From Alphaproteobacteria bacterium (GTDB lineage: Bacteria > Pseudomonadota > Alphaproteobacteria > CALMVH01), in the NCBI GenBank assembly GCA_965199265.1, contig CBDAQV010000010.1, forward strand, positions 53,345-117,344: a stretch of DNA of 64,000 nucleotides. Reading direction: 5' to 3'. Shown here piece by piece: positions 1,106 through 33,471 of this stretch. The notes beneath the pieces were generated by a model, which was given only the letters and a program-made list of their open reading frames with translations, was not told where the DNA came from and made no database searches. The translations under genes and the position numbers were made by a program. The number at the start of each line of letters is the position of its first letter. Position 1 is the stretch's first letter.

Positions 1106-2231
1106 AGCCGGGAATCAGCTCGCGCAGCCGGGCGCGTTTGGCGAAAGCGACTTCGGGCATTAAATGGCGGGACAACGCGAAAGGCAGCATGGCCGCTTCG
1201 GCCAGGCGCGCGTAGGTTGCCGGTGTGATTCGCGTGATTGCCGGCGCGATCAGCTCCATTTCATCCAGCTTGCCGCTACAATGAAGCGTCAGGTCGTTAC
1301 CCGCCGCCAGAGTGGCTTCGGCTCGTTCGCGAAGCCCTCCGCTCAGCGCATGCATGCCGATATCATCCGCGATCAGTACGCCCGGAAATCCCATGCCGAT
1401 GCGGATAACGTCCTCGATCACGGTGCGCGAAGTGGAAGCAGGCTGCTCCGCGTCTATGTCGGAATATTTGACATGCGCCACCATTGCCCAGGGTAGTCCG
1501 GCGTTTCCTGGATGCGCCAGCTTCCAGAACGGGTGAAAGTCGGTTTTGATCAGTTCGGCTCGGGATGTCGTGACGTTGGGCAGGTCTGCATGGCTGTCCA
1601 CCGGCGCCCGGCCGTGGCCCGGAATGTGCTTGATGACCGGGACCACGCCGCCGATCTGCAGGCCGAAGCATACCTGCGTTGCCAGCTGCGCAACGAGTTC
1701 GGGATCGCTGTCGAAAGCCCTGTCTCCCACGACGCCGTGCGCGTCGGGGAAGTACAAGTCCGCGACGGGGGCACAGTTCACCGTGACCCCCAGCGAAGCC
1801 AATTCGTAGGCGATCAGGCTGGCGTTCAGCATTGCCGCTTCCAGCGCCGGGCTAAGCTCGCCGGCATCGGGACCTGCCTGCAGCGCCAAGCCATGGGCCC
1901 GGTCGGCCCGGAGCATGTCACCGAACACCCGCATCGGTGGAAATTTGGGCCAGTGCGGCGGTTTCAAACGCGCAACGCGCCCCCCTTCCTGGTCTATCAG
2001 GATAGGTGCATCGTCACGCCCGACGCTGTCGCGCAAAGCACGGGTTAGTGCACGCACCTGATCGGGAGTTTCACAGTTGCGCTGGAACAGGATGAAACCG
2101 AGCGGATCGAGTTCGCGGAAGAAGCGCTGCTCGGCGTTTGTCAGCACGGTTCCGGAACAGCCGAGTATGACCGCAAGCGGCAAGGAAGCCGCGCTGGGAT
2201 AGTCAGCGCGAGACTGCGATGCAGGAGACAT
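1095..2231 (-). CDS. nagZ: Beta-N-acetylhexosaminidase (GH3)
   Basis: IDQEGGRVARL and KHIPGHG...DSH motifs; conserved context. Confidence 0.95.
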   Translation of the reverse strand: MSPASQSRADYPSAASLPLAVILGCSGTVLTNAEQRFFRELDPLGFILFQRNCETPDQVRALTRALRDSVGRDDAPILIDQEGGRVARLKPPHWPKFPPMRVFGDMLRADRAHGLALQAGPDAGELSPALEAAMLNASLIAYELASLGVTVNCAPVADLYFPDAHGVVGDRAFDSDPELVAQLATQVCFGLQIGGVVPVIKHIPGHGRAPVDSHADLPNVTTSRAELIKTDFHPFWKLAHPGNAGLPWAMVAHVKYSDIDAEQPASTSRTVIEDVIRIGMGFPGVLIADDIGMHALSGGLRERAEATLAAGNDLTLHCSGKLDEMELIAPAITRITPATYARLAEAAMLPFALSRHLMPEVAFAKRARLRELIPGYGE

Positions 2232-3192
2232 TGGCTGCCTTTAATGTTGCACAGGTTTGCTTGGCGATGTCGGGCCCGAGCGGCCCGGCCTTCAGCCTGA
2301 ACCATATCCCCTTGTCACCAAGGTCTACACGCTGGATCGACGGCGACAGGGGGCTCAGCTGGTCGGCGTGACGCGCTTGCAGCCGTTTCCATTCGCCGTT
2401 CGCGCTCGCCTCGTCCCTGAAGGCACCGAGCTGGATCATGCCGCCGCCAGCGCCTGTGTTGACGGGCTTGGCCTTTTGCGGGATCGCTTTGGAGGCCTGT
2501 TTCGACGGGGAAGGTGCAATCGCCGCCTCAGGATTGCTCCCGTCACGATCCTGCCCGTTCGCTGCCTGGCTTTCCGGTGCCGGCGGAAGCGGGAGCTTGT
2601 TGGCCGGGATCGCTGATGGGTTGTGAGCTGTGACAGGCGCAAGCGCGGAGGGATTGTCGCTCGTCGAGGTTTCGACGTCGCCAGGGGGGGAGTCCGCGTC
2701 CGAGGATGTGCCGGGTACGCGCGCTGCCGGCGCATCAGCATCGAAGGTACTCCTGGCCGCCTCCGCTGCCGGCGGCTGAGGCTTGGGCAGCGGCTGCTCG
2801 GGGGGTTGCAGCAAATGTTCGACCTCGCTGGACGCACGCCGTCCCTTGTGCTGCGTCAACTCATCATAGACAGTAGTGTCCTGGAATGGAATCTCCGTTC
2901 CCCCTGGGTTGTCCGGCTTGACCTTGACCGGACCAGGCTCCGCGGCAATCACCGGCAGCTGCCCCGATGCGCCGATAGGATGGCGCCGATAGGCGATCAT
3001 GACAAAAGCGGTGAACAGGACCAGCGCGCAGCCGACAAGAAAAGTCGGGATCAGCGATCGGCGTCCGCGGCGTGTCGGCATGGGCGAGGACCTCTGTGTC
3101 TCTTCGAAATAAGGTTCGTGCCGTTTCCTGTAAGGGCCAGCGCCAAACGGTGGCTCTTGCCGGTGATCGTCGTCGAACGGATTGCCTGTCAT
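2203..3192 (-). CDS. SPOR-domain membrane protein (FtsN-like)
   Basis: One TM helix, Pro/Ala-rich linker, C-terminal SPOR (IQLGAF...WFRLKAGP...C...C); usual position upstream of nagZ. Confidence 0.85.
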   Translation of the reverse strand: MTGNPFDDDHRQEPPFGAGPYRKRHEPYFEETQRSSPMPTRRGRRSLIPTFLVGCALVLFTAFVMIAYRRHPIGASGQLPVIAAEPGPVKVKPDNPGGTEIPFQDTTVYDELTQHKGRRASSEVEHLLQPPEQPLPKPQPPAAEAARSTFDADAPAARVPGTSSDADSPPGDVETSTSDNPSALAPVTAHNPSAIPANKLPLPPAPESQAANGQDRDGSNPEAAIAPSPSKQASKAIPQKAKPVNTGAGGGMIQLGAFRDEASANGEWKRLQARHADQLSPLSPSIQRVDLGDKGIWFRLKAGPLGPDIAKQTCATLKAANVSCIAVSR

Positions 3193-3935
3193 CCTGGCTC
3201 GTGGGAAAGGACGAGGGCGGTCGCCCTGACAAGCGCCAGACGGGCGCGCGACAGCTCACGGTCCGCAGGGGCGATGAAGCCGAGCATCGAATTGTCTCGC
3301 CGCGATGCCCAAACCGCGCGGAAAGCGGTCGCCACATCCTGCAAGTACTTAGCAATCTGCCGATCTTGGCCGTTGGCAAGCGCATAAGGCCAGCCGGCGA
3401 GAGTTTTCATCAATGCGGCGTCCGGCTGACCGTCGATCCGGGCCAGCTTTGCACCGGCGAGAGCATTGTCGTGCAAATCTTCACCTGACTTGGCGGCATG
3501 CCCGAGGACGGAGCAGCACAGCGCCAGCACGTGCGACAGGTTGAACACCGGATCGGTCGCCGACCAGTCGGTCGCGGCGGCGTGATCGACATGCCCGCAT
3601 ACATCCCGGTCACCCCCGCCATGCAGGATGCCGGCGATGGCGCGATGCCAGACAACCGGTTTCAGGCGCAGGTTGACGAAGCCGTTCTCGGCCGCGTCGG
3701 CGTGCAGCACATCGGGCAGGGCAATGAAGTGACGGGCCAGGGTTTTTGCCAGCGTGGGCGCATCCACCCTGCCGGCGGCGACCAGTGCGGCGTTGGTGGA
3801 CATATCCCCATGCCTTGGGTCGCGTGCCGGCTCGACGCTGAGACGCCCGAAGTCCACTGCGTCGAGGTCGCCGGCGGAAACCATCCGCTCCAGCTCGAAC
3901 CGCATCAGGTGTTCATAGGTCTCGTAAAGGTTCAT
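3189..3935 (-). CDS. ArgRS-derived protein: N-terminal domain fused to the DALR anticodon-binding domain, catalytic domain absent (possibly a pseudogene)
   Basis: VEPARDPRHGDMSTNAALV and GFVNLRL (ArgRS N-domain); DPVF...CCSVL and RARLALVRA (DALR); no HIGH or KMSKS; 248 aa; ATGA overlaps at both ends. Confidence 0.8.
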   Translation of the reverse strand: MNLYETYEHLMRFELERMVSAGDLDAVDFGRLSVEPARDPRHGDMSTNAALVAAGRVDAPTLAKTLARHFIALPDVLHADAAENGFVNLRLKPVVWHRAIAGILHGGGDRDVCGHVDHAAATDWSATDPVFNLSHVLALCCSVLGHAAKSGEDLHDNALAGAKLARIDGQPDAALMKTLAGWPYALANGQDRQIAKYLQDVATAFRAVWASRRDNSMLGFIAPADRELSRARLALVRATALVLSHEPG

Positions 3936-5125
3936 GGGGTCGGGCTGCGCAGGTCGAAAAGGCGGTTGTGTTCGGTCAGGGCATAACGGTCGGTCATGCC
4001 GGCGATGTAGTCGGCGATCAGCCGGGCTTGCTCTGCCTTGTTTCCCGAAGGTGAACGCCAGTCGGGTGGAAGGGTTTCCGGCTCGGCAATGAAAATCTCG
4101 AACAGGTCGCGCACGACCCGCCTCGCCTTGCTGGTCATCCGGTTTACCTGATAATGCCGGTACAGGTGTTCCCACAGGAAGGCGCGCAACTGCTTTTCCG
4201 CCGGTTGGAACCCTTCCGAGAAGGCGACCACGGGCGCACCCGCGTTGCGGATGTCATCCGCGCTTTGCGGGTTCAGGGCCGCAAGCCGTCTGCGGGTCTC
4301 GTCCAGCACATCCAGAACCATATGGTTGATGGTCGAGCGGATCAGCTCGTGGATCAGGCGCGAGCGGTCGAGGACAGGGCCTTTCCGCACGTCGACCGAG
4401 CGCAGCGCGTCGCCGACGATCGGCAATCCGCGGAGCTGGTCGATGGTGAACGCTCCGGCGCGAAGCCCGTCGTCTAGATCGTGATTGTTGTAGGCGATGT
4501 CGTCGGCCAACGCCGCGATTTGCGCTTCGGCCGAGGCATGGCTGGCAAGCTCCAGATCGTACTGGCGGCTGAACGCTTCGGTCGTCAGGCCCAGTTTCTT
4601 GCCGTGAGTGACCGGCACCGCCGGGCCATTGTGTTTGACCAGGCCTTCCAGCGTCTCCCAGGTCAGGTTCAGACCGTCGAAATCGGCATACCGGCACTCG
4701 AGACGGGTGACAATCCGCAAGGCTTGGTCGTTGTGATCGAAGCCGCCATATTCGGCCATGCAGGCCCGCAACGCGTCCTCGCCGGCGTGGCCGAAGCATG
4801 TATGGCCAAGGTCGTGCGCCAAAGCCAGCGCCTCGCCAAGATCCTCGTTCAGTCCCAGCACGCGGCAGATCGAGCGCGCGATCTGAGCCACCTCGATGCT
4901 ATGCGTCAACCGGGTGCGGTAGTAGTCTCCTTCGTGGTAGACGAAGACCTGTGTCTTGTACTGCAGTTTCCGGAAAGCGCCCGAATGGATGATCCGGTCG
5001 CGGTCGCGCTGGAACACAGTGCGAGTCGGAGCCTCGCTCTCGGCGAACTGCCGCCCGCGCGAGCGCGCCGGATCGCAGGCGAACGACGCCTGCTGGGGCG
5101 GGAACGGCTCTGATGCATTCGGCAT
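3932..5125 (-). CDS. dgt: dGTP triphosphohydrolase
   Basis: FQRDRDRIIHS, RTRLTHS, HDLGH, ADDIAY, DYIAGMTD. Confidence 0.95.
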   Translation of the reverse strand: MPNASEPFPPQQASFACDPARSRGRQFAESEAPTRTVFQRDRDRIIHSGAFRKLQYKTQVFVYHEGDYYRTRLTHSIEVAQIARSICRVLGLNEDLGEALALAHDLGHTCFGHAGEDALRACMAEYGGFDHNDQALRIVTRLECRYADFDGLNLTWETLEGLVKHNGPAVPVTHGKKLGLTTEAFSRQYDLELASHASAEAQIAALADDIAYNNHDLDDGLRAGAFTIDQLRGLPIVGDALRSVDVRKGPVLDRSRLIHELIRSTINHMVLDVLDETRRRLAALNPQSADDIRNAGAPVVAFSEGFQPAEKQLRAFLWEHLYRHYQVNRMTSKARRVVRDLFEIFIAEPETLPPDWRSPSGNKAEQARLIADYIAGMTDRYALTEHNRLFDLRSPTP

Positions 5126-26141: not shown

Positions 26142-27104
26142 ATGGCTGCCGATATAAACGTAATCACGCCTTATCCTACGTCACCGGCCTGCGGTTTTCC
26201 CCGCCCTGCGGAAGCTCTGCTCTCACCCATGCTGAACATTCAAACGGCCGCTCCAACAGGAGCGGCCGTTTCCGTTCCGGAGCATCTCAGGGGATTGACG
26301 CTTGAGGCTCGCGCAGCGCTTTGCAATCCGGTCATTGCCGCGGGTACGAGGCGGTTCCTGGAGCGTAGCGGCATGGACCGCGAAACCGGCATTGGGCTGG
26401 TCCTTGCCGGCCTTCCTTCCGACATGGTCCCGCATTTGAACAGGATGCCCGATCAATTGGAACTGGTGGTCGCCGCGGCCGAGCCTTCGATGAAGACCGA
26501 TTGGCGACTGCAAACGAAGTTATATGAACTGCACCGGGCCGATTATCTTCATTGGACTGCCGAGCGCGCCGCCGAGCAAGGGGCTAAGTTTCATGTCGAG
26601 GCGCGTGTCCCGTCGCGCAACGCCCGGACATCACAGCCCGAGACGACGTTAATGACGCTCGGGCCGGAAAGCATCGTGTGCATGAAGGCAGGCAAGACTC
26701 CGCCAGGCTGGAATGTCGAGCATGTAAGCTGCCGTTACTTGGTGAAGGGGGATGGGCAATCCGCCAACCGGATCGGGAACCTGCAGATCATGCCCGCGGT
26801 GATCAACCGCTGGACGGCGACGCTCGAACAGCTGCAGTTCGAGAGCGGCTTGTTTACGGAAAAATGGAAGTCACCCTCGGCGGTCAAGGCGACTGGCGGT
26901 TCCGACCGGACTTTGATCTTGTGCGCGCGGCCGAAACAAGGACCGTCCCAGGGCTTCCTGTTCTTCGGCGCAAAGGAGCCGCAAACCAGTAATCCTGTCA
27001 TCCTGGCAAAATGGCGTGACCTGGACATCTCGCAATTGCCGCGAACATCGTCTATGATGTTTTCACGGGCGCATCAGGTGATGAGGCCCACTCCTTTCCT
27101 CTGA
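26142..27104 (+). CDS. Hypothetical protein with HNH/HNN-like nuclease motif
   Basis: PPGWNVEH-x11-N-x3-NL-x7-N near 26700-26810; AT-rich upstream region. Confidence 0.55.
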   Translation: MAADINVITPYPTSPACGFPRPAEALLSPMLNIQTAAPTGAAVSVPEHLRGLTLEARAALCNPVIAAGTRRFLERSGMDRETGIGLVLAGLPSDMVPHLNRMPDQLELVVAAAEPSMKTDWRLQTKLYELHRADYLHWTAERAAEQGAKFHVEARVPSRNARTSQPETTLMTLGPESIVCMKAGKTPPGWNVEHVSCRYLVKGDGQSANRIGNLQIMPAVINRWTATLEQLQFESGLFTEKWKSPSAVKATGGSDRTLILCARPKQGPSQGFLFFGAKEPQTSNPVILAKWRDLDISQLPRTSSMMFSRAHQVMRPTPFL

Positions 27105-27115
27105 GACACTCGTAC

Positions 27116-27601
27116 ATGGTTACATCCAGCGGCTTCAGGCAGATCCTGGACCTCTTCACGGTTCCCAACCAGATCATTGCTCCGGACCCTGTAGCTTCCC
27201 GTACCCTGCAGGAAGCCGAATATGTGCTTTCCGAACAGGGTCAGAAACTGCCGGGCGATTACCGCGAGTTCCTCACCGAGGTTAACGGTTTTACGTGGAA
27301 CGGCATCGACATGTTCGGAGTGCCTCCAACCCGTAGCGACATTCACCTGCTGAACGCACAATCGACGATTGATCCGGCCCGCCGGATTGGAAGCGACAAG
27401 CTCATGATCGGGACATCGGAAAGTTACGTGTACCTCCACGACGGGTCGACAAATACATATCACCTTGCGATCCGTCCGAAGTTCGTACTTGAAGCAACCG
27501 CATGGCCAAGCTTTTCGAGCCTGCTTGTCGATATTTTCACGCAGCGGCAGGGAGTACCGCGACCCGGCCCGGCGGGCGGTCCTGTTCTCGGCTTCAACTA
27601 G
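27116..27601 (+). CDS. SMI1/KNR4 (SUKH, YrhA-like) family protein
   Basis: LQEAE..L...KLPGDYREFLTEVNGFTWNGIDMFG signature. Confidence 0.72.
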   Translation: MVTSSGFRQILDLFTVPNQIIAPDPVASRTLQEAEYVLSEQGQKLPGDYREFLTEVNGFTWNGIDMFGVPPTRSDIHLLNAQSTIDPARRIGSDKLMIGTSESYVYLHDGSTNTYHLAIRPKFVLEATAWPSFSSLLVDIFTQRQGVPRPGPAGGPVLGFN

Positions 27602-28384: not shown

Positions 28385-28455
28385 ACCCTGCGCGTCACAA
28401 GCCTTATGGTAAAAGGCGATGCCTGACTTGACGCCCAGTGCGGCGCGTTTGCAGA

Positions 28456-29073
28456 TCAGGCCTTGCGATTAAACTTTTTTGCCTGCGTATCCGTGTTCGC
28501 CATAACAGCAGGCGGCTTGTCCGCCATGCTTGGCAGGGCCCCGATCTTTATTCCCATCTTCTGCTCGGCGTCGCGGATCATCCGCTGGTGCATTTCGACC
28601 TTTGGCAAACCTTCCTTTGCGTCCGCCACCAAGCCGAGGTTCATGCCCTTGTCCGCTTCCTCGCTGAAGGCCATGATCGCCTCGCGATGTTCCTTGTCCA
28701 TGATCTGCAGGAACAGGTTGTCGAAATCCGTGGCCGAAGCGTCCTCGAGCTGGCTGATTTCCATCTGATGACCGGCGTCAAGATCGTAGGGCTGGTAAAC
28801 GTCGGCATTGTCGGCGTCCTTGGCGACCACCTTGGAAAGGTACTTGTGATCAGCGATCATACGGTCCGCAATGGCCCGCACCTCCGGGTTGTTGCTGCGA
28901 TCGCGCGCAAGTTTGGACGATTCCATTTCTGTCATACTGCCTTGTGTTGCGAGCACGACGAACAGTCCGTCCTGGCTGGACGCCAAGGGCGGCGACACAT
29001 CGCGAGCATGGGCGCTGACGGGCAGGGCCAACATCAGGCATCCCAAAGCTGCAGTCTTCGCGAATTTGTTCAT
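28456..29073 (-). CDS. DUF4142-family exported protein
   Basis: Signal peptide; EVRAIADRMIADH, FDNLFLQIM..H, LPKVEMH. Confidence 0.82.
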   Translation of the reverse strand: MNKFAKTAALGCLMLALPVSAHARDVSPPLASSQDGLFVVLATQGSMTEMESSKLARDRSNNPEVRAIADRMIADHKYLSKVVAKDADNADVYQPYDLDAGHQMEISQLEDASATDFDNLFLQIMDKEHREAIMAFSEEADKGMNLGLVADAKEGLPKVEMHQRMIRDAEQKMGIKIGALPSMADKPPAVMANTDTQAKKFNRKA

Positions 29074-29112
29074 CTTGACCTCGGACAGGAAGTAAACTGG
29101 TTGGGAATAGGG

Positions 29113-29137
29113 AACCCGCCTGACGAGGCCTTGTTCC
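29113..29137 (-). promoter_or_regulatory. Putative sigma-EcfG (general stress response) promoter
   Basis: Minus strand reads GGAAC-N16-GGTT, about 40 nt upstream of the DUF4142 ATG; consensus is GGAAC-N16/17-(C/G)GTT. Confidence 0.6.
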
Positions 29138-29264
29138 AAGCGATGTCCGAGGTCATGCGCGGGTCGCGTGCGGACGAGGAACTCGCCTTAGCAAGGGGCG
29201 TTGATGTGCTATCCGAAGGACTTCAAGTGTCCGCACAGCCATTTCTCCAGCATGGAAGACAACC

Positions 29265-29831
29265 TTGAAACTCCATATCCTGATCTGCAGCACACGGCCG
29301 ACGCGGAAAGGGCCGGCTGTTGCAAGCTGGTTCCGCCAGTACGCCGCGACGCACGGAAAGTTCGAGAGCGAATTGGTGGACATCGCCGCGTTCGACCTGC
29401 CGGTGTTCGACGAGCCGGAACATCCCGCCAAACGGCAATATGTTCATGAACACACTAAAAACTGGAGCGCCAGCGTCGACGCGGCAGACGCTTTCGTTTT
29501 CGTGATGCCGGAGTACAACCATCACACGCCGCCGGCGCTGCTGAATGCCATGACCTACGTCTATCACGAATGGACATACAAGCCGGTCGGCTTCGTCAGC
29601 TACGCCGGGCTTTCGGGCGGATTGCGCGCGGTCGAGACCACCAGGCAACTGGTCGGCACTTTTCGCATGGTGCCTGTTGTCGAGCAGGTGGCGATTCCTT
29701 TTTTCGAAAAGAAACTCGACAAGGATGACGTCTTGATCTCTGATGAAAAATTGGACAGTTCAGCCAAAGGGTTGCTGGATGAACTTCATAAATGGTCCGA
29801 AGCCCTGAAACCCCTTAGACTCAGGGGCTAA
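29265..29831 (+). CDS. NADPH-dependent FMN reductase
   Basis: ICSTRPTRKG, PEYNH, KPVGFVSY.G.SGG.RA. Confidence 0.92.
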   Translation: MKLHILICSTRPTRKGPAVASWFRQYAATHGKFESELVDIAAFDLPVFDEPEHPAKRQYVHEHTKNWSASVDAADAFVFVMPEYNHHTPPALLNAMTYVYHEWTYKPVGFVSYAGLSGGLRAVETTRQLVGTFRMVPVVEQVAIPFFEKKLDKDDVLISDEKLDSSAKGLLDELHKWSEALKPLRLRG

Positions 29832-29907
29832 CGGCTTCGAACGGCTAACCAATTCTTAGCGTAGGCGGGGTCAAAATGGCGAATTAGAACTCGTCGCGTG
29901 AAGACCC

Positions 29908-32900
29908 ATGGCCAACCTCCTTATTGCGATCATCGGGATAGTCTTTGCCGCCGCGCTGGCCACCGCCGGCATCAGCTACCTGAACCCGAGCGCCTTCGTG
30001 GAGCACCGCCAGGCGACGGCGGGTACGTCGCAGATCGAAGCCCTGGCGGCGGACTACCAGAACCTGTCGATGAACCTCGGGCACAGGCCAACGGCTGCGG
30101 ACTACGCGGCGCAGTATCCGAAGCAGTCCGCCAACTCGCAGTACAGTTACAGTTCAGCCGGGTCGTCCACCACCGTGACCACGAATGCCGACCAGGGAAA
30201 TACCGCCGGCGTCAAGTGGACTTTCGTGCCGGGCTGCGGGACCGCGAGCAACGGCACGGTGCAGGATTGTTTCTGTACCACAATCAGCGACGGTTCGGAT
30301 TTGACCTACAAGGCCGCCAAGATGTCGGCGTTGTCCGAAATGGATTCCACGTCGTTGTCGCGGGTGGAGTACGGATCGAGCTGTTCGGGATCCAACAACG
30401 TCACCGACCCGCATGCGTGGCCCGCCGCAGCCCCCGCAAACGGCTACACCCTGACCCTGCGCATGCAGGGCGGCACGCCGAGCGCGGCAACGGCCACGCC
30501 GTTCTACAGTTATAATCCGGTTCCCGTCACGACATGCCCCCTGGGGTGCGGACAGTCGATTCCGCGCGTGCTGGTTAGCTGGAGCTGTGTACGCTCGGAC
30601 GGTCAGACGGTAGCGCAATCTTACTGCGCGTCCGGACCGCCTACTGACCTCGGTACCTGCCAGGACACAACCTACTGCAGTGTCCAAGGTGCTGCGGTCG
30701 TATCAGGCTATGGTCCTTGCATAGGCGGCGTCCAGACCCTGCAATGGAACTGTTATGCGAACGGGGTCAAGCTCAATTCAAACCAATGCACGCCTCCACC
30801 AAATCTGACCCAGACATGCGGAACCAGTAACAATAATAACAACTACACTTACGCCGTTTCAAATGCCCAGTACGGAACCTGCACGGCCGCGTGCGGCAGC
30901 AGCACAGCGCCTGTCGCAAGCTGGACGTGCGTTCGGAGCGACGGCACGACGGTCTCGCAAAGCGACTGCACCAGCGCGGGCGTGACGCCGGCGGCGACGC
31001 AGGCGTGTACCAGCTACGCGACCTGCGTCGCCAGCAGCCCGGTCTATGGTACCTGCTCAGCGACATGCGGCACCGGCACGGCTCCTCTGGTCAGCTACAC
31101 TTGCGCAGACCTTGCCGGTAATTCGGTGGCCAGCAGCAATTGCCCGTCTCCCGCCAAGACGCAGGCCTGTACGTCGACGACTTCGTGCACCTACACCGCC
31201 AATGCGTCGACTTACGGAACGTGCACGCCCGCCTGCGGCAGCAGCGTGGCGGCGGCCGGCAGCAACTGGACATGCATGCAATCGGACGGTACCAGCGTCA
31301 GCCAGTCGGTCTGCCTCGCGCACGGGGTTTCGCCGACGTCGCAGGCTTGTACGAACTATTCGCTGTGCACGCCCGAAAACGTGGTCTACTCGCCCACATG
31401 CTCTAACACATGCGGCACGGGGACGGAGGCGTTGCAGTCCTGGACCTGCGGGTTCCTGGCGCAAACCGCCAGCCAGTCGCAATGCACCGCGCCCGCAGCC
31501 ACGCAGGCCTGCACCGGCTACAGCGGATGCAGCTACACGGCCAGCAACCCGACGGCGTACGGCTCTTGCTCGACAACATGCGGAACAGGCACGCAAACGG
31601 CAACGGCGTTCACCTGTACACGCTCGGACGGAACCGTCGTGGCGCAAAGCAACTGCACCGCGCCGACCACGAGCTGCACAAGCACGTCGCAATGTGTCCT
31701 GCATAACTCCTACGGTCCCTGCTCTGCCACTTGCGGAGCCGGAACCCAGACTTTGAAGGGTTCCACCTGCACAGACAGCAACGGCAACTCAGCGCCCACT
31801 GCAGATTGCAAGACGCCTCCCAGCACCTTGATATGCACCAGCACGTCGGGTTGCAGCTACGTAGCTGGGCTGCCTTCGGCGTGGGGCGCTTGCTCGACGA
31901 CCTGCGGCGTCGGCACGCAGACCGCAACCACCTATCCCTGCACCCGTTCGGATGGCACGTCCGAGCCGCAGGGCGACTGCACCGCCCCGGTGCGCGCCTG
32001 CACCAGCACCACACAGTGCATTCCGCATGCAAGCTACGGATCCTGCTCGTCGACGTGCGGGACCGGTACGCAGGTGCTTCTGCCGGGCTGGACGTGCACG
32101 GACAGCACCGGCAATGCAGCGCCGGCTCTGAACTACTGCACCGCGCCCATCGGCATTGCCTCTTGTACGGTTACGAGCGGCTGCAGCTACACCGCCAGCA
32201 ATCCGACAGCGTACGGATCGTGCTCGACAACCTGCGGAACGGGTACGCAAACCGCGACCGCGTTCACTTGCACCCGCTCCGACGGAACGTCCGAGCCCTT
32301 GAGCGCCTGCACGGCGCCGACGAAGAGCTGCAGCAGCAACACAGGCTGCGTCGCAACCCCCACCTACGGCGCCTGCAACACGACCTGCGGCACCGGCACG
32401 CAGACGCTCACCTCGTGGACGTGCGACACGAGCGGCGGCAGCGTCGTGACGCCGGCCAGCACCTACTGCCCGACGCCGCCGGCCAGCAGCGAAAGCTGTA
32501 CCGCCACGTCCGGGTGCACCTATACCGCCAGCGGCGGTTCGAACTGGGGCGCCTGCTCGACAACCTGCGGAACGGGAACGCAGACGGCCGGCACGTTCAC
32601 GTGTAAAAGGTCGGACGGAACCGTGGTCGCCGCAAGCAACTGTACCGCGCCCACTCAAAGCTGCACGAGCACTTCGCAATGCGTGGTTCACGCCAGCTAC
32701 GGAGCATGCAATGCGACTTGCGGCGCCGGGACCGAGGCCTTGAACAGTTCGTGGACCTGCACCGACGCGAACGGCAATGCCGCACCGACACGCAGCGACT
32801 GCACCGCCCCGGCAGGCAGCATGGCCTGCAGCGCGTACACCGGTTGTACCTATGCCGCGAGCGCGCCTACGGCCTGGGGTGCGTGTTCCAGTACCTGCGG

Positions 32901-33471
32901 CACGGGTACCCAGACCGCGACGGCGTTCACCTGCACCCGCTCGGACGGGACCTTGGAACCGGATAGCTATTGCACTGCGCCGACTGAGGCCTGTACGGAT
33001 TACTCCAGCTGTACGTTTACCTACCAGCCTGTCAACTACAGCTACAGCAACACGTGCGCACCTGCCGATTGCGGGGCGCCCAGTCACCAGGAATTGGCAA
33101 GCTGGCAGTGCGAGCGCTTCCCGGACGGCACGATCGTCGACAACAGTTATTGCGTAAACAACCAGCCGCCTCCAGGACCGGTTTGCTACAATTACTCAAG
33201 CTGCTACACCTACACCTCGTCCAACCCGACCTACGGGGCCTGCGTGGCAAGTTGCAACGGCTCGACCCCGGTCGGCACCGCGACCTTGCCCACGGCAACC
33301 GACCCGGTGCTTGGAACAAGCTATTACGACGGGTTTACCTGTACGCGCTCCGACGGCGTTATCTTCAGCGGTGCTGGCGATGCGGAGCAGGGATGTCAGG
33401 CGCTGGTGGGCAGCTCGACCCTTCCCGCCAGCATCTCGTGCACCCCAACAACGCCGGCGACTTGCCATTGA
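29908..33471 (+). CDS. Large Cys-rich surface protein: pilin-like N-terminal helix plus about 17 thrombospondin type-1-like repeats
   Basis: MANLLIAIIGIVFAAALATAGISY hydrophobic helix; repeated (W/Y)GxCSxTCGxGTQT...C..SDG...C...C-x5-C; about 104 Cys by manual count. Confidence 0.82.
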   Translation: MANLLIAIIGIVFAAALATAGISYLNPSAFVEHRQATAGTSQIEALAADYQNLSMNLGHRPTAADYAAQYPKQSANSQYSYSSAGSSTTVTTNADQGNTAGVKWTFVPGCGTASNGTVQDCFCTTISDGSDLTYKAAKMSALSEMDSTSLSRVEYGSSCSGSNNVTDPHAWPAAAPANGYTLTLRMQGGTPSAATATPFYSYNPVPVTTCPLGCGQSIPRVLVSWSCVRSDGQTVAQSYCASGPPTDLGTCQDTTYCSVQGAAVVSGYGPCIGGVQTLQWNCYANGVKLNSNQCTPPPNLTQTCGTSNNNNNYTYAVSNAQYGTCTAACGSSTAPVASWTCVRSDGTTVSQSDCTSAGVTPAATQACTSYATCVASSPVYGTCSATCGTGTAPLVSYTCADLAGNSVASSNCPSPAKTQACTSTTSCTYTANASTYGTCTPACGSSVAAAGSNWTCMQSDGTSVSQSVCLAHGVSPTSQACTNYSLCTPENVVYSPTCSNTCGTGTEALQSWTCGFLAQTASQSQCTAPAATQACTGYSGCSYTASNPTAYGSCSTTCGTGTQTATAFTCTRSDGTVVAQSNCTAPTTSCTSTSQCVLHNSYGPCSATCGAGTQTLKGSTCTDSNGNSAPTADCKTPPSTLICTSTSGCSYVAGLPSAWGACSTTCGVGTQTATTYPCTRSDGTSEPQGDCTAPVRACTSTTQCIPHASYGSCSSTCGTGTQVLLPGWTCTDSTGNAAPALNYCTAPIGIASCTVTSGCSYTASNPTAYGSCSTTCGTGTQTATAFTCTRSDGTSEPLSACTAPTKSCSSNTGCVATPTYGACNTTCGTGTQTLTSWTCDTSGGSVVTPASTYCPTPPASSESCTATSGCTYTASGGSNWGACSTTCGTGTQTAGTFTCKRSDGTVVAASNCTAPTQSCTSTSQCVVHASYGACNATCGAGTEALNSSWTCTDANGNAAPTRSDCTAPAGSMACSAYTGCTYAASAPTAWGACSSTCGTGTQTATAFTCTRSDGTLEPDSYCTAPTEACTDYSSCTFTYQPVNYSYSNTCAPADCGAPSHQELASWQCERFPDGTIVDNSYCVNNQPPPGPVCYNYSSCYTYTSSNPTYGACVASCNGSTPVGTATLPTATDPVLGTSYYDGFTCTRSDGVIFSGAGDAEQGCQALVGSSTLPASISCTPTTPATCH
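30844..33468 (+). repeat. Intragenic tandem repeat, about 160-180 nt units in alternating A/B types
   Basis: 15 consecutive six-Cys modules (last two longer and divergent); A units carry C(T/V/K)RSDG, B units often carry CTDxxGN. Confidence 0.85.

Follow-up and report, generated by a model that had tools for sequence, protein, structure and literature searches.

What would a bacterium do with an animal-type repeat array mounted on something that resembles a pilin? The question is raised by a gene in a 64,000-nucleotide stretch of an alphaproteobacterial genome (GenBank assembly GCA_965199265.1, contig CBDAQV010000010.1, positions 53,345 to 117,344; hereafter the window), which runs from 29908 to 33471 on the forward strand and encodes a protein of 1187 residues (P0001). 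An earlier reading of the bare sequence, referred to here as the original prediction, described the product as a giant pilin-like protein carrying about 17 modules that resemble thrombospondin type-1 repeats (TSRs). Following this up computationally, we favour, with moderate confidence, a reading in which a modular pilin, minor or located at the tip, would display the rod of TSRs; within this reading, filament assembly and adhesion are inferred. On all points the sequence bears out what the original prediction observed, and its interpretation is supported in part. The open reading frame (ORF) is intact and lies where it had been placed, as does an in-frame TGA stop at 29899..29901, three codons before the ATG on the same strand, which makes a longer leader peptide impossible. 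The protein contains 104 Cys, four of them in the N-terminal head (residues 110, 121, 123 and 159) and 100 in the tail, Ser and Thr together make up 30% of its residues, and the tail is acidic (pI 4.4). Neither NCBIfam nor PHROGs returned a match to it.

The first part of the question is whether the repeats deserve their name. The tail comprises an array of 17 modules (residues 210-1186; 30535..33465, forward strand) delimited by Pfam, Cys counts and AlphaFold2 (AF2) modelling with Foldseek comparison. The table of Cys positions fixes the "about 17" of the original prediction at 17 and upholds its even Cys count per module, since 16 of the 17 have six and the remaining one (residues 271-304) has four; the module it quoted is found at residues 657-704. 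A hidden Markov model scan, which had been proposed as a check, matched the Pfam family TSP1_ADAMTS (PF19030) over 10 stretches of the protein (E 6.5e-25, 87.6 bits), and as the cut-off for this family is 23.8 bits the likeness to TSRs is not a matter of chance. When double modules were aligned (n=13; seven copies from this protein and six from its orthologue in the sister species), all twelve Cys were invariant in 13/13 copies and the mean column identity was 59%. The AF2 model of modules 9-10 built from this alignment has a mean predicted local distance difference test score (pLDDT) of 90.9, and the first 13 rows of its Foldseek comparison with the PDB are all solved TSR structures, led by TSR2-3 of TSP-1 (1lsl; E 2.3e-3, probability 0.96) and including properdin, the complement C5b-8 and C5b-9 complexes, C6 and THSD7A, with the circumsporozoite protein, semaphorin 5A, TRAP and UNC5 in lower rows. 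No row of that comparison reached an E value of 0.001 or better, which is to be expected for two small domains joined by a free hinge, and a sequence profile of the double module found no match among PDB sequences.

The modules do depart from the TSRs of animals in one defining respect. The TSR family is defined by stacked layers of Trp and Arg, contributed by a W-x-x-W motif on strand A and by Arg on strand B. These layers are missing here: W-x-x-W is absent from all 17 modules, 15 of the 17 have a single aromatic residue ahead of the first Cys (mostly Tyr, with Trp in three), and no more than three have Arg or Lys on strand B, the other 14 having neither. The module table thus agrees with the original prediction that the Arg ladder has been lost and Trp often exchanged for Tyr. 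What is retained is a profile match above the cut-off, six Cys per module, a C-x-x-[ST]-C-x-x-G motif in 11 of the 17, and an elongated three-stranded fold, as far as this is predicted. Both the profile match and the predicted fold identify the modules as genuine TSRs, and the check on their fold, which rested on the model confidence and the uniformly TSR Foldseek rows, turned out in their favour.

The array also has an internal organisation which may bear on its function. Its regular core (residues 554-1035; 31567..33012, forward strand) was recognised by alignment and from the module table and comprises nine modules that alternate between two subtypes, one of 43 residues and one of 45-48; this core is probably the spacer part of the rod. 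Beyond it lie two atypical modules (residues 1050-1186; 33055..33465, forward strand), distinguished by their Cys spacing and by a comparison of C-terminal ends, and since the same atypical pair is kept at the C-terminal end of five homologues it is predicted to be a candidate binding tip. Animal TSRs have a basic heparin-binding groove. The acidic tail of pI 4.4 and the lack of an Arg ladder argue against assuming a groove of that kind here, and it is because of this acidic, Arg-poor surface that we assign a spacer role to most modules and propose the distal pair as the end that binds. Tandem Repeats Finder detected no repeat at the DNA level in the gene; the module copies are therefore old. 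In eukaryotes C-x-x-[ST]-C-x-x-G is a site of O-fucosylation by POFUT2-type enzymes; no match to PF10250 (O-FucT) was found in the genome, a search whose control was equally silent (0/14 control genomes).

The second part of the question concerns what holds this rod. The protein begins Met-Ala-Asn-Leu and continues with a stretch of about 20 hydrophobic residues (4-24), with neither a basic n-region nor a Gly-Phe site; residue 5 is Leu, not Glu, and the polar residue that is nearly invariant is Asn3 instead. The absence of a leader, of a Gly-Phe site and of Glu5, and the presence of a four-Cys head, are all as originally described. The N-terminal helix (residues 1-57; 29908..30078, forward strand; AF2 and hhalign) is modelled by AF2 as two segments, 2-25 and 27-57, of which roughly the first 25 residues are hydrophobic and the remainder amphipathic. 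It opens a larger module (residues 1-205; 29908..30522, forward strand), delimited by AF2, VIA-align and phmmer, in which helix 2-57 is followed by a six-stranded sheet with one further helix and which contains the four head Cys; the model, made from 13 sequences, has a pLDDT of 75.5 and a predicted template-modelling score (pTM) of 0.69. When this module was compared with 48,161 representative chains by VIA-align, ranks 1 to 7 were all type IV pilins, mostly of type IVb: the CofA pilus (Z 7.2), C. difficile PilA1 (Z 6.9), the TcpA pilus (Z 6.5), PilS (Z 6.2), PilM (Z 5.8) and the large minor pilins CofB (Z 4.9) and TcpB (Z 4.6). The assignment rests on the top rows being uniformly pilins and not on the size of Z, and it is on this basis that the predicted structure of the N-terminal region can be called pilin-like. 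Bitopic machine proteins of the PilN/PilO/GspM type were absent from the 50 rows listed for the head, and the many paralogues per genome described below fit pilins better than proteins of that type. A protein-atlas look-up, which yields leads only, placed N_methyl and PilM as the nearest named clusters (scores 0.85-0.91).

Relatives of the head show that its unusual N-terminus is not an accident of one gene. A phmmer search of residues 1-205 against 1.84 billion cluster representatives found 17 proteins, and since 15 of these align residue 1 to residue 1 the family is consistently leaderless. Some members stand alone (155-241 residues) and others bear tails of TSR-like or other Cys-rich repeats. 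In three metagenomic proteins (P0022, P0023 and P0026) the same leaderless head is joined to repeats that are about 40 residues long, contain a conserved Trp and four Cys, and replace the TSR modules or mix with them. The fusion of the head to differing repeat types suggests that it serves as a general carrier for repeat stalks. As a single query the head found no relative among the genome contigs searched, and close full-length relatives of the protein number 19 (E <=0.001) among 5.8 billion.

The original prediction had proposed looking for paralogous N-termini in the same genome, and a tblastn search with the head found three short genes, encoding 198-209 residues and starting M-A-N-L-(I/V)-I-T-V-I-A-I-A-L, two of which stand beside the ATPase of a type IV filament machine. 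In three of the four M-A-N-L starts of the genome an in-frame stop lies close upstream (1, 2 and 11 codons), those at 1 and 11 codons belonging to two of the three short paralogues. A search with the short paralogue gathered 164 proteins, none with a Pfam domain and only one with a label of any kind, "pseudopilin PulG" from JGI. Among the 120 of these relatives that were listed, 118 share a 26-residue start at position 1, M-(A/S/F)-N-L-I, and the remaining two were called from an internal Met. In this short family the N-terminus is conserved while the heads vary, and a single genome may have numerous copies (up to 8 or more matches), which is the pattern that pilins show. When aligned by hhalign, the profile of TSR-type heads matched that of the short family over columns 1-61 (probability 94.6, E 6.5e-8), so on sequence grounds the N-terminal helix of the TSR pilin is akin to this pilin-like family. 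One short leaderless member, P0142, comes from the cultured gammaproteobacterium Natronocella acetinitrilica and may offer an experimental handle.

This conservation bears directly on the possibility that we are dealing with an ordinary TSR adhesin secreted through Sec, in which the N-terminus would be a cleaved signal and the protein would be released or bound to the outer membrane. Other bacterial proteins with TSR arrays do start with classical signals (P0006 to P0008; L007 and L010), and small-residue, A-x-A-like sites are present at residues 16-21 of the protein studied here. However, not one member of the family has Lys or Arg ahead of the hydrophobic stretch, the first 26 or so residues are almost invariant in 118 of the 120 listed relatives, unlike those of cleaved signals, and the AF2 helix continues unbroken to residue 57. 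We therefore consider a plain cleaved Sec signal, which would have undone the original prediction, to be quite improbable, the near-invariance of the N-terminus across the family being the main reason.

If the head is a pilin it needs a machine, since subunits of this kind are assembled by an extension ATPase, a platform and, in diderms, a secretin, whose genes accompany theirs; the genome encodes such a machine elsewhere. As the original prediction had noted, there are no export genes adjacent to the TSR-pilin gene, none being present among its Pfam-scanned neighbours between 18 and 47 kb of the window. The search of the genome for type IV pilus, type II secretion and Dsb genes, by comparison, recovered an ATPase, a platform protein, a secretin, DsbA and DsbB. 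The ATPase locus (contig C11, L004:8986-14847, minus strand) holds the ATPase gene, a gene for a 684-residue protein with a leaderless, hydrophobic start, two short paralogues of about 208 residues and genes for small membrane proteins, the 684-residue gene and both paralogues directly adjoining that of the ATPase. The ATPase itself is a 543-residue protein of the PilB/GspE type and carries an MshE-type motif for binding cyclic di-GMP (c-di-GMP). The platform protein, best matched by GspF, and the secretin, best matched by MshL, are encoded together on another contig (C4, L006:9251-14142) along with a conserved partner of 296 residues. The scores of all these components fall well short of the NCBIfam equivalog cut-offs. 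Contig C4 also has, adjoining the platform gene, a gene for a TpsA-like filamentous haemagglutinin of 1805 residues with a long Gly/Ser repeat (L006:3121-8538, plus strand). In a relative, a named record of a metagenome-assembled genome (MAG), the machine forms a single cluster (L026:2020-15956, on a 946-kb contig) made up of a secretin, a platform protein, five leaderless pilin-like genes (encoding 167, 173, 210, 526 and 767 residues) and an ATPase, with no peptidase gene visible within its 16 kb.

Such a machine could in principle belong to secretion rather than to a surface filament, in which case the protein would be a pseudopilin-like cap or cargo binder of a type II secretion-like pseudopilus and would reach the surface only transiently. 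The ATPase does not separate the two, being matched almost equally by GspE (3.4e-92) and PilB (1.8e-91), and the platform, with GspF as its best match, leans towards secretion. Against this stand the MshL-like secretin and the MshE-type c-di-GMP motif of the ATPase, while the number of pilin-like paralogues per carrier genome (up to 8 or more) suits surface filaments and it is hard to see what a long adhesive rod would do in a piston. We regard a pseudopilus as very unlikely.

A more surprising feature of the machine is the enzyme that it appears to lack. Type IV pilins are defined by their class III signal peptide, a leader of hydrophilic character, and the peptidase that cleaves it is counted among five ancestral parts of these systems (PMC10191384). 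We found no Peptidase_A24 in this genome (G000, 97% complete), in that of the sister species (G001, 96%) or in that of the other genus of the bacterial family (G002, 85%), in a search that was positive in 12 of 14 control genomes, and no classical prepilin or Flp motif was found in the six frames. The prepilin-peptidase step thus seems unnecessary in this bacterial family. Most members of the pilin-like family have Ala, Gly or Ser as residue 2, and for that reason Met1 could be removed by methionine aminopeptidase. We also considered whether the whole pilin-like family does without a prepilin peptidase, and rejected this, as Peptidase_A24 is present in all eight of the other genomes of the class that carry it.

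That result is one of several which weigh against the TSR pilin being assembled into a filament as proposed, and these need to be set out together. The presence of the enzyme in 8/8 other carriers means that independence from it is supported for this bacterial family only, and in those other carriers the family may have a two-residue leader ending in Ala, pilin leaders being known to end in Gly or Ala (PMC10191384). The class III signal peptide, which defines pilins, is absent, the leader amounting to at most the two residues Met-Ala, and so is Glu5, which many but not all pilins have. The VIA-align scores (Z <=7.2) fall in what the tool's own scale calls the "middling" range, and Foldseek gave no significant match to the head, its best row being the type IVb pilin PilS at E 0.27. 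Kinship with the short paralogues is uneven, since the hhalign match covers the helix only and BLASTP pairs the head with the short paralogue only weakly (E 0.008, 27% identity over 179 residues). The TSR-pilin gene adjoins no filament gene, and its link to the machine consists of the common N-terminal helix and the predicted fold. Finally, the orthologue in the sister species, although it occupies the same position between the FMN reductase gene and recG, is broken by a one-base frame change inside module 1, leaving a head ORF of 279 residues (4277-5116) and a TSR ORF of 962 residues (1465-4353; L002, minus strand); this may mean that the gene is dispensable or decayed, that it is a phase variant, or that the assembly contains an error.

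Many of these same points would be explained if the protein were a signal-anchored envelope protein, the helix acting as an anchor and nothing more, with the TSR rod staying at the inner membrane, for example as a scaffold that spans the periplasm or is associated with the envelope, and never being polymerised. A gene standing alone among housekeeping genes, a product with no Glu5 and no leader, middling pilin-fold scores, and a kinship to operon-encoded pilin-like proteins that is significant over the helix only are all what such an anchor would lead one to expect. It accounts less well for the head, a helix and sheet whose seven best structural matches are all pilins, the large tip pilins CofB and TcpB among them, or for N-terminal residues conserved far beyond the needs of a simple anchor, and the 17-module rod would exceed the width of the periplasm several-fold. 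We consider an anchor of this sort unlikely, if less easily dismissed than the secretory alternatives. The N-terminus of a pilin, in which some 20-25 hydrophobic residues run on into a helix of about 50 residues, is present in the model, and so is the head of the lollipop fold, an antiparallel beta-sheet packed against the helix, albeit one that is predicted and scores in the middling range; under the strict definition the protein falls outside the canonical type IV pilins, but it most likely acts like one.

Taking the protein to be a modular tip or minor pilin, the following course of events may be envisaged. It is made without any leader beyond Met, or at most Met-Ala, and would be inserted through Sec with its N-terminus inside. 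Residues 1-205 would form the pilin module, with a membrane helix destined for the filament core and a beta-sheet head, while the 100 Cys of the tail would be oxidised in the periplasm by DsbA and DsbB, both of which are encoded in the genome. The type IV filament machine could then take up the subunit, whose bulk would favour a position at the tip, as for CofB and TcpB in type IVb pili, and the thin, disulfide-locked rod would thread through the secretin so that the two conserved distal modules are held out as the binding end. Solved TSRs span 4-5 nm per module, and at that spacing the rod would have a length of the order of 70-80 nm. A bolder extension of this is that a small clade of uncultured alphaproteobacteria builds type IV filaments whose subunits dispense entirely with a prepilin peptidase, one of these leaderless subunits holding out an animal-type TSR rod tens of nanometres long. 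We put this forward tentatively, as possible rather than probable; were it true, the rod would be a grappling tip that extends the reach of the cell towards a eukaryotic host, a prey cell or a particle, the filament would represent a pilus subtype that has yet to be described, and bacteria and eukaryotes alike would use the TSR as a rigid spacer.

The distribution of the components is narrow. Among the genomes of the class covered by the search (401 genomes in 308 genera), TSP1_ADAMTS modules occur in seven genomes and four genera, and the pilin-like family in 11 genomes and 10 genera. The labelled carriers are MAGs of Rhodospirillales, Rhodospirillaceae or "Alphaproteobacteria bacterium", together with one contig labelled Abditibacterium. 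As the carriers are uncultured and mostly small-genome alphaproteobacteria, the protein may mark a lifestyle attached to a host or prey. Around the gene itself, the Pfam-scanned neighbours are the housekeeping genes uvrA, ssb, gyrA, an FMN reductase gene, recG, ppa and mfd. Just upstream, between 26000 and 30000 of the window, the G+C content is 0.576-0.577, compared with about 0.62-0.66 around it; of the ORFs in this stretch, 26142-27104 and 28438-29268 have no Pfam match and 27116-27601 is weakly SUKH/SMI1-KNR4-like. No RNA sequencing runs were listed as containing the TSR-pilin gene. Sequencing contigs from two studies carry pieces of it, one of which, of 1961 nucleotides, is without differences; three contig joints that might have indicated variation in module copy number were rejected, the sides of the joints being shorter than 30 letters and hence untrustworthy.

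Our literature searches turned up nothing published on leaderless pilins, bacterial TSR pilins or the fusion seen here, and as far as those searches show this would be the first instance of TSRs grafted on a pilin. On the reading favoured here, the TSR pilin is of the modular tip pilin kind, which is already known; what is unusual is the combination of an animal-type TSR rod with a leaderless subunit family in a lineage where no prepilin peptidase is detectable. The protein and its short relatives would be invisible to surveys based on the prepilin motif, and should these leaderless subunits indeed polymerise, type IV filaments do not depend on the removal of a leader. The system also offers a simple bacterial setting in which to ask what a TSR rod does without the Trp/Arg ladder, and it raises the issue of whether the TSRs of bacteria and those of eukaryotes go back to a common origin.

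The closest parallels among known pilins are CofB of the CFA/III pilus of enterotoxigenic Escherichia coli (ETEC) and TcpB of the toxin-coregulated pilus (TCP) of Vibrio cholerae, which, like the TSR pilin, place extra beta-rich domains on a linker after an N-terminal pilin module. These two are located at the tip and are needed for binding partners (PMC8179133). Unlike the TSR pilin, CofB and TcpB have a leader, which a prepilin peptidase removes, and their genes belong to their pilus operons; the extra domains are of types other than TSR, and the chains, at 496 and 390 residues, are less than half as long. Modular pilins more generally are well established through PilB and PilC of Streptococcus sanguinis, which carry a vWA and a lectin module respectively (Raynaud et al. 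2021, PMC8179133), and the TSR pilin resembles them in design, a pilin module bearing an adhesion module of eukaryotic type that the filament would display. That survey, in the terms in which its text defines modular pilins, relied on the IPR012902 prepilin motif, and the TSR pilin, lacking this motif, would be missed by it. The most extreme modular pilin that the text of the survey presents has 860 residues and 12 repeats, compared with 1187 and 17 here, and the word "thrombospondin" does not occur in its main text, although its Dataset S1 may list TSP1 architectures.

In its machine, the system is most similar to those of MSHA-type (T4eP) and type IVb pili, with which it shares several genes for pilin-like proteins, a secretin resembling MshL, a platform of the GspF family and a PilB/GspE-family ATPase whose N-terminus is of the c-di-GMP-binding MshE type. 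It differs from them in that its pilin-like subunits are all without a leader and Glu5, and in that no prepilin peptidase was found in the bacterial family.

The rod invites comparison in two directions. With the TSRs of animals and apicomplexans (TSP-1, properdin, ADAMTS, TRAP/CSP) it shares a six-Cys module of 43-50 residues, the TSP1_ADAMTS profile, an arrangement in tandem arrays, a predicted elongated three-stranded fold and, in 11 of its 17 modules, the C-x-x-[ST]-C-x-x-G motif; compared with animal TSRs, its modules lack W-x-x-W, bear a single aromatic residue on strand A, are nearly devoid of Arg and Lys on strand B, and form an acidic tail. Other bacterial proteins with TSR arrays (L007, L009, L010 and P0006 to P0019) likewise have tandem TSP1_ADAMTS modules and are secreted; they are uncharacterised and come from small-genome alphaproteobacteria and from other bacteria. 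Three of these loci, L009 (G382:C27), L007 and L010 (G102 and G265), belong to small-genome alphaproteobacteria of another family and combine Sec signals with TSR arrays that look canonical and keep W..W and T-Q-T-R, one of which ends in a Hint-like (intein/hedgehog-type) domain. As a group, the other bacterial array proteins end in Hint-like, He_PIG or LruC domains, and they differ from the TSR pilin in having classical Sec signals and in keeping W..W and Arg; none has the pilin-like head which, in the protein described here, carries an acidic rod with neither W-x-x-W nor an Arg ladder.

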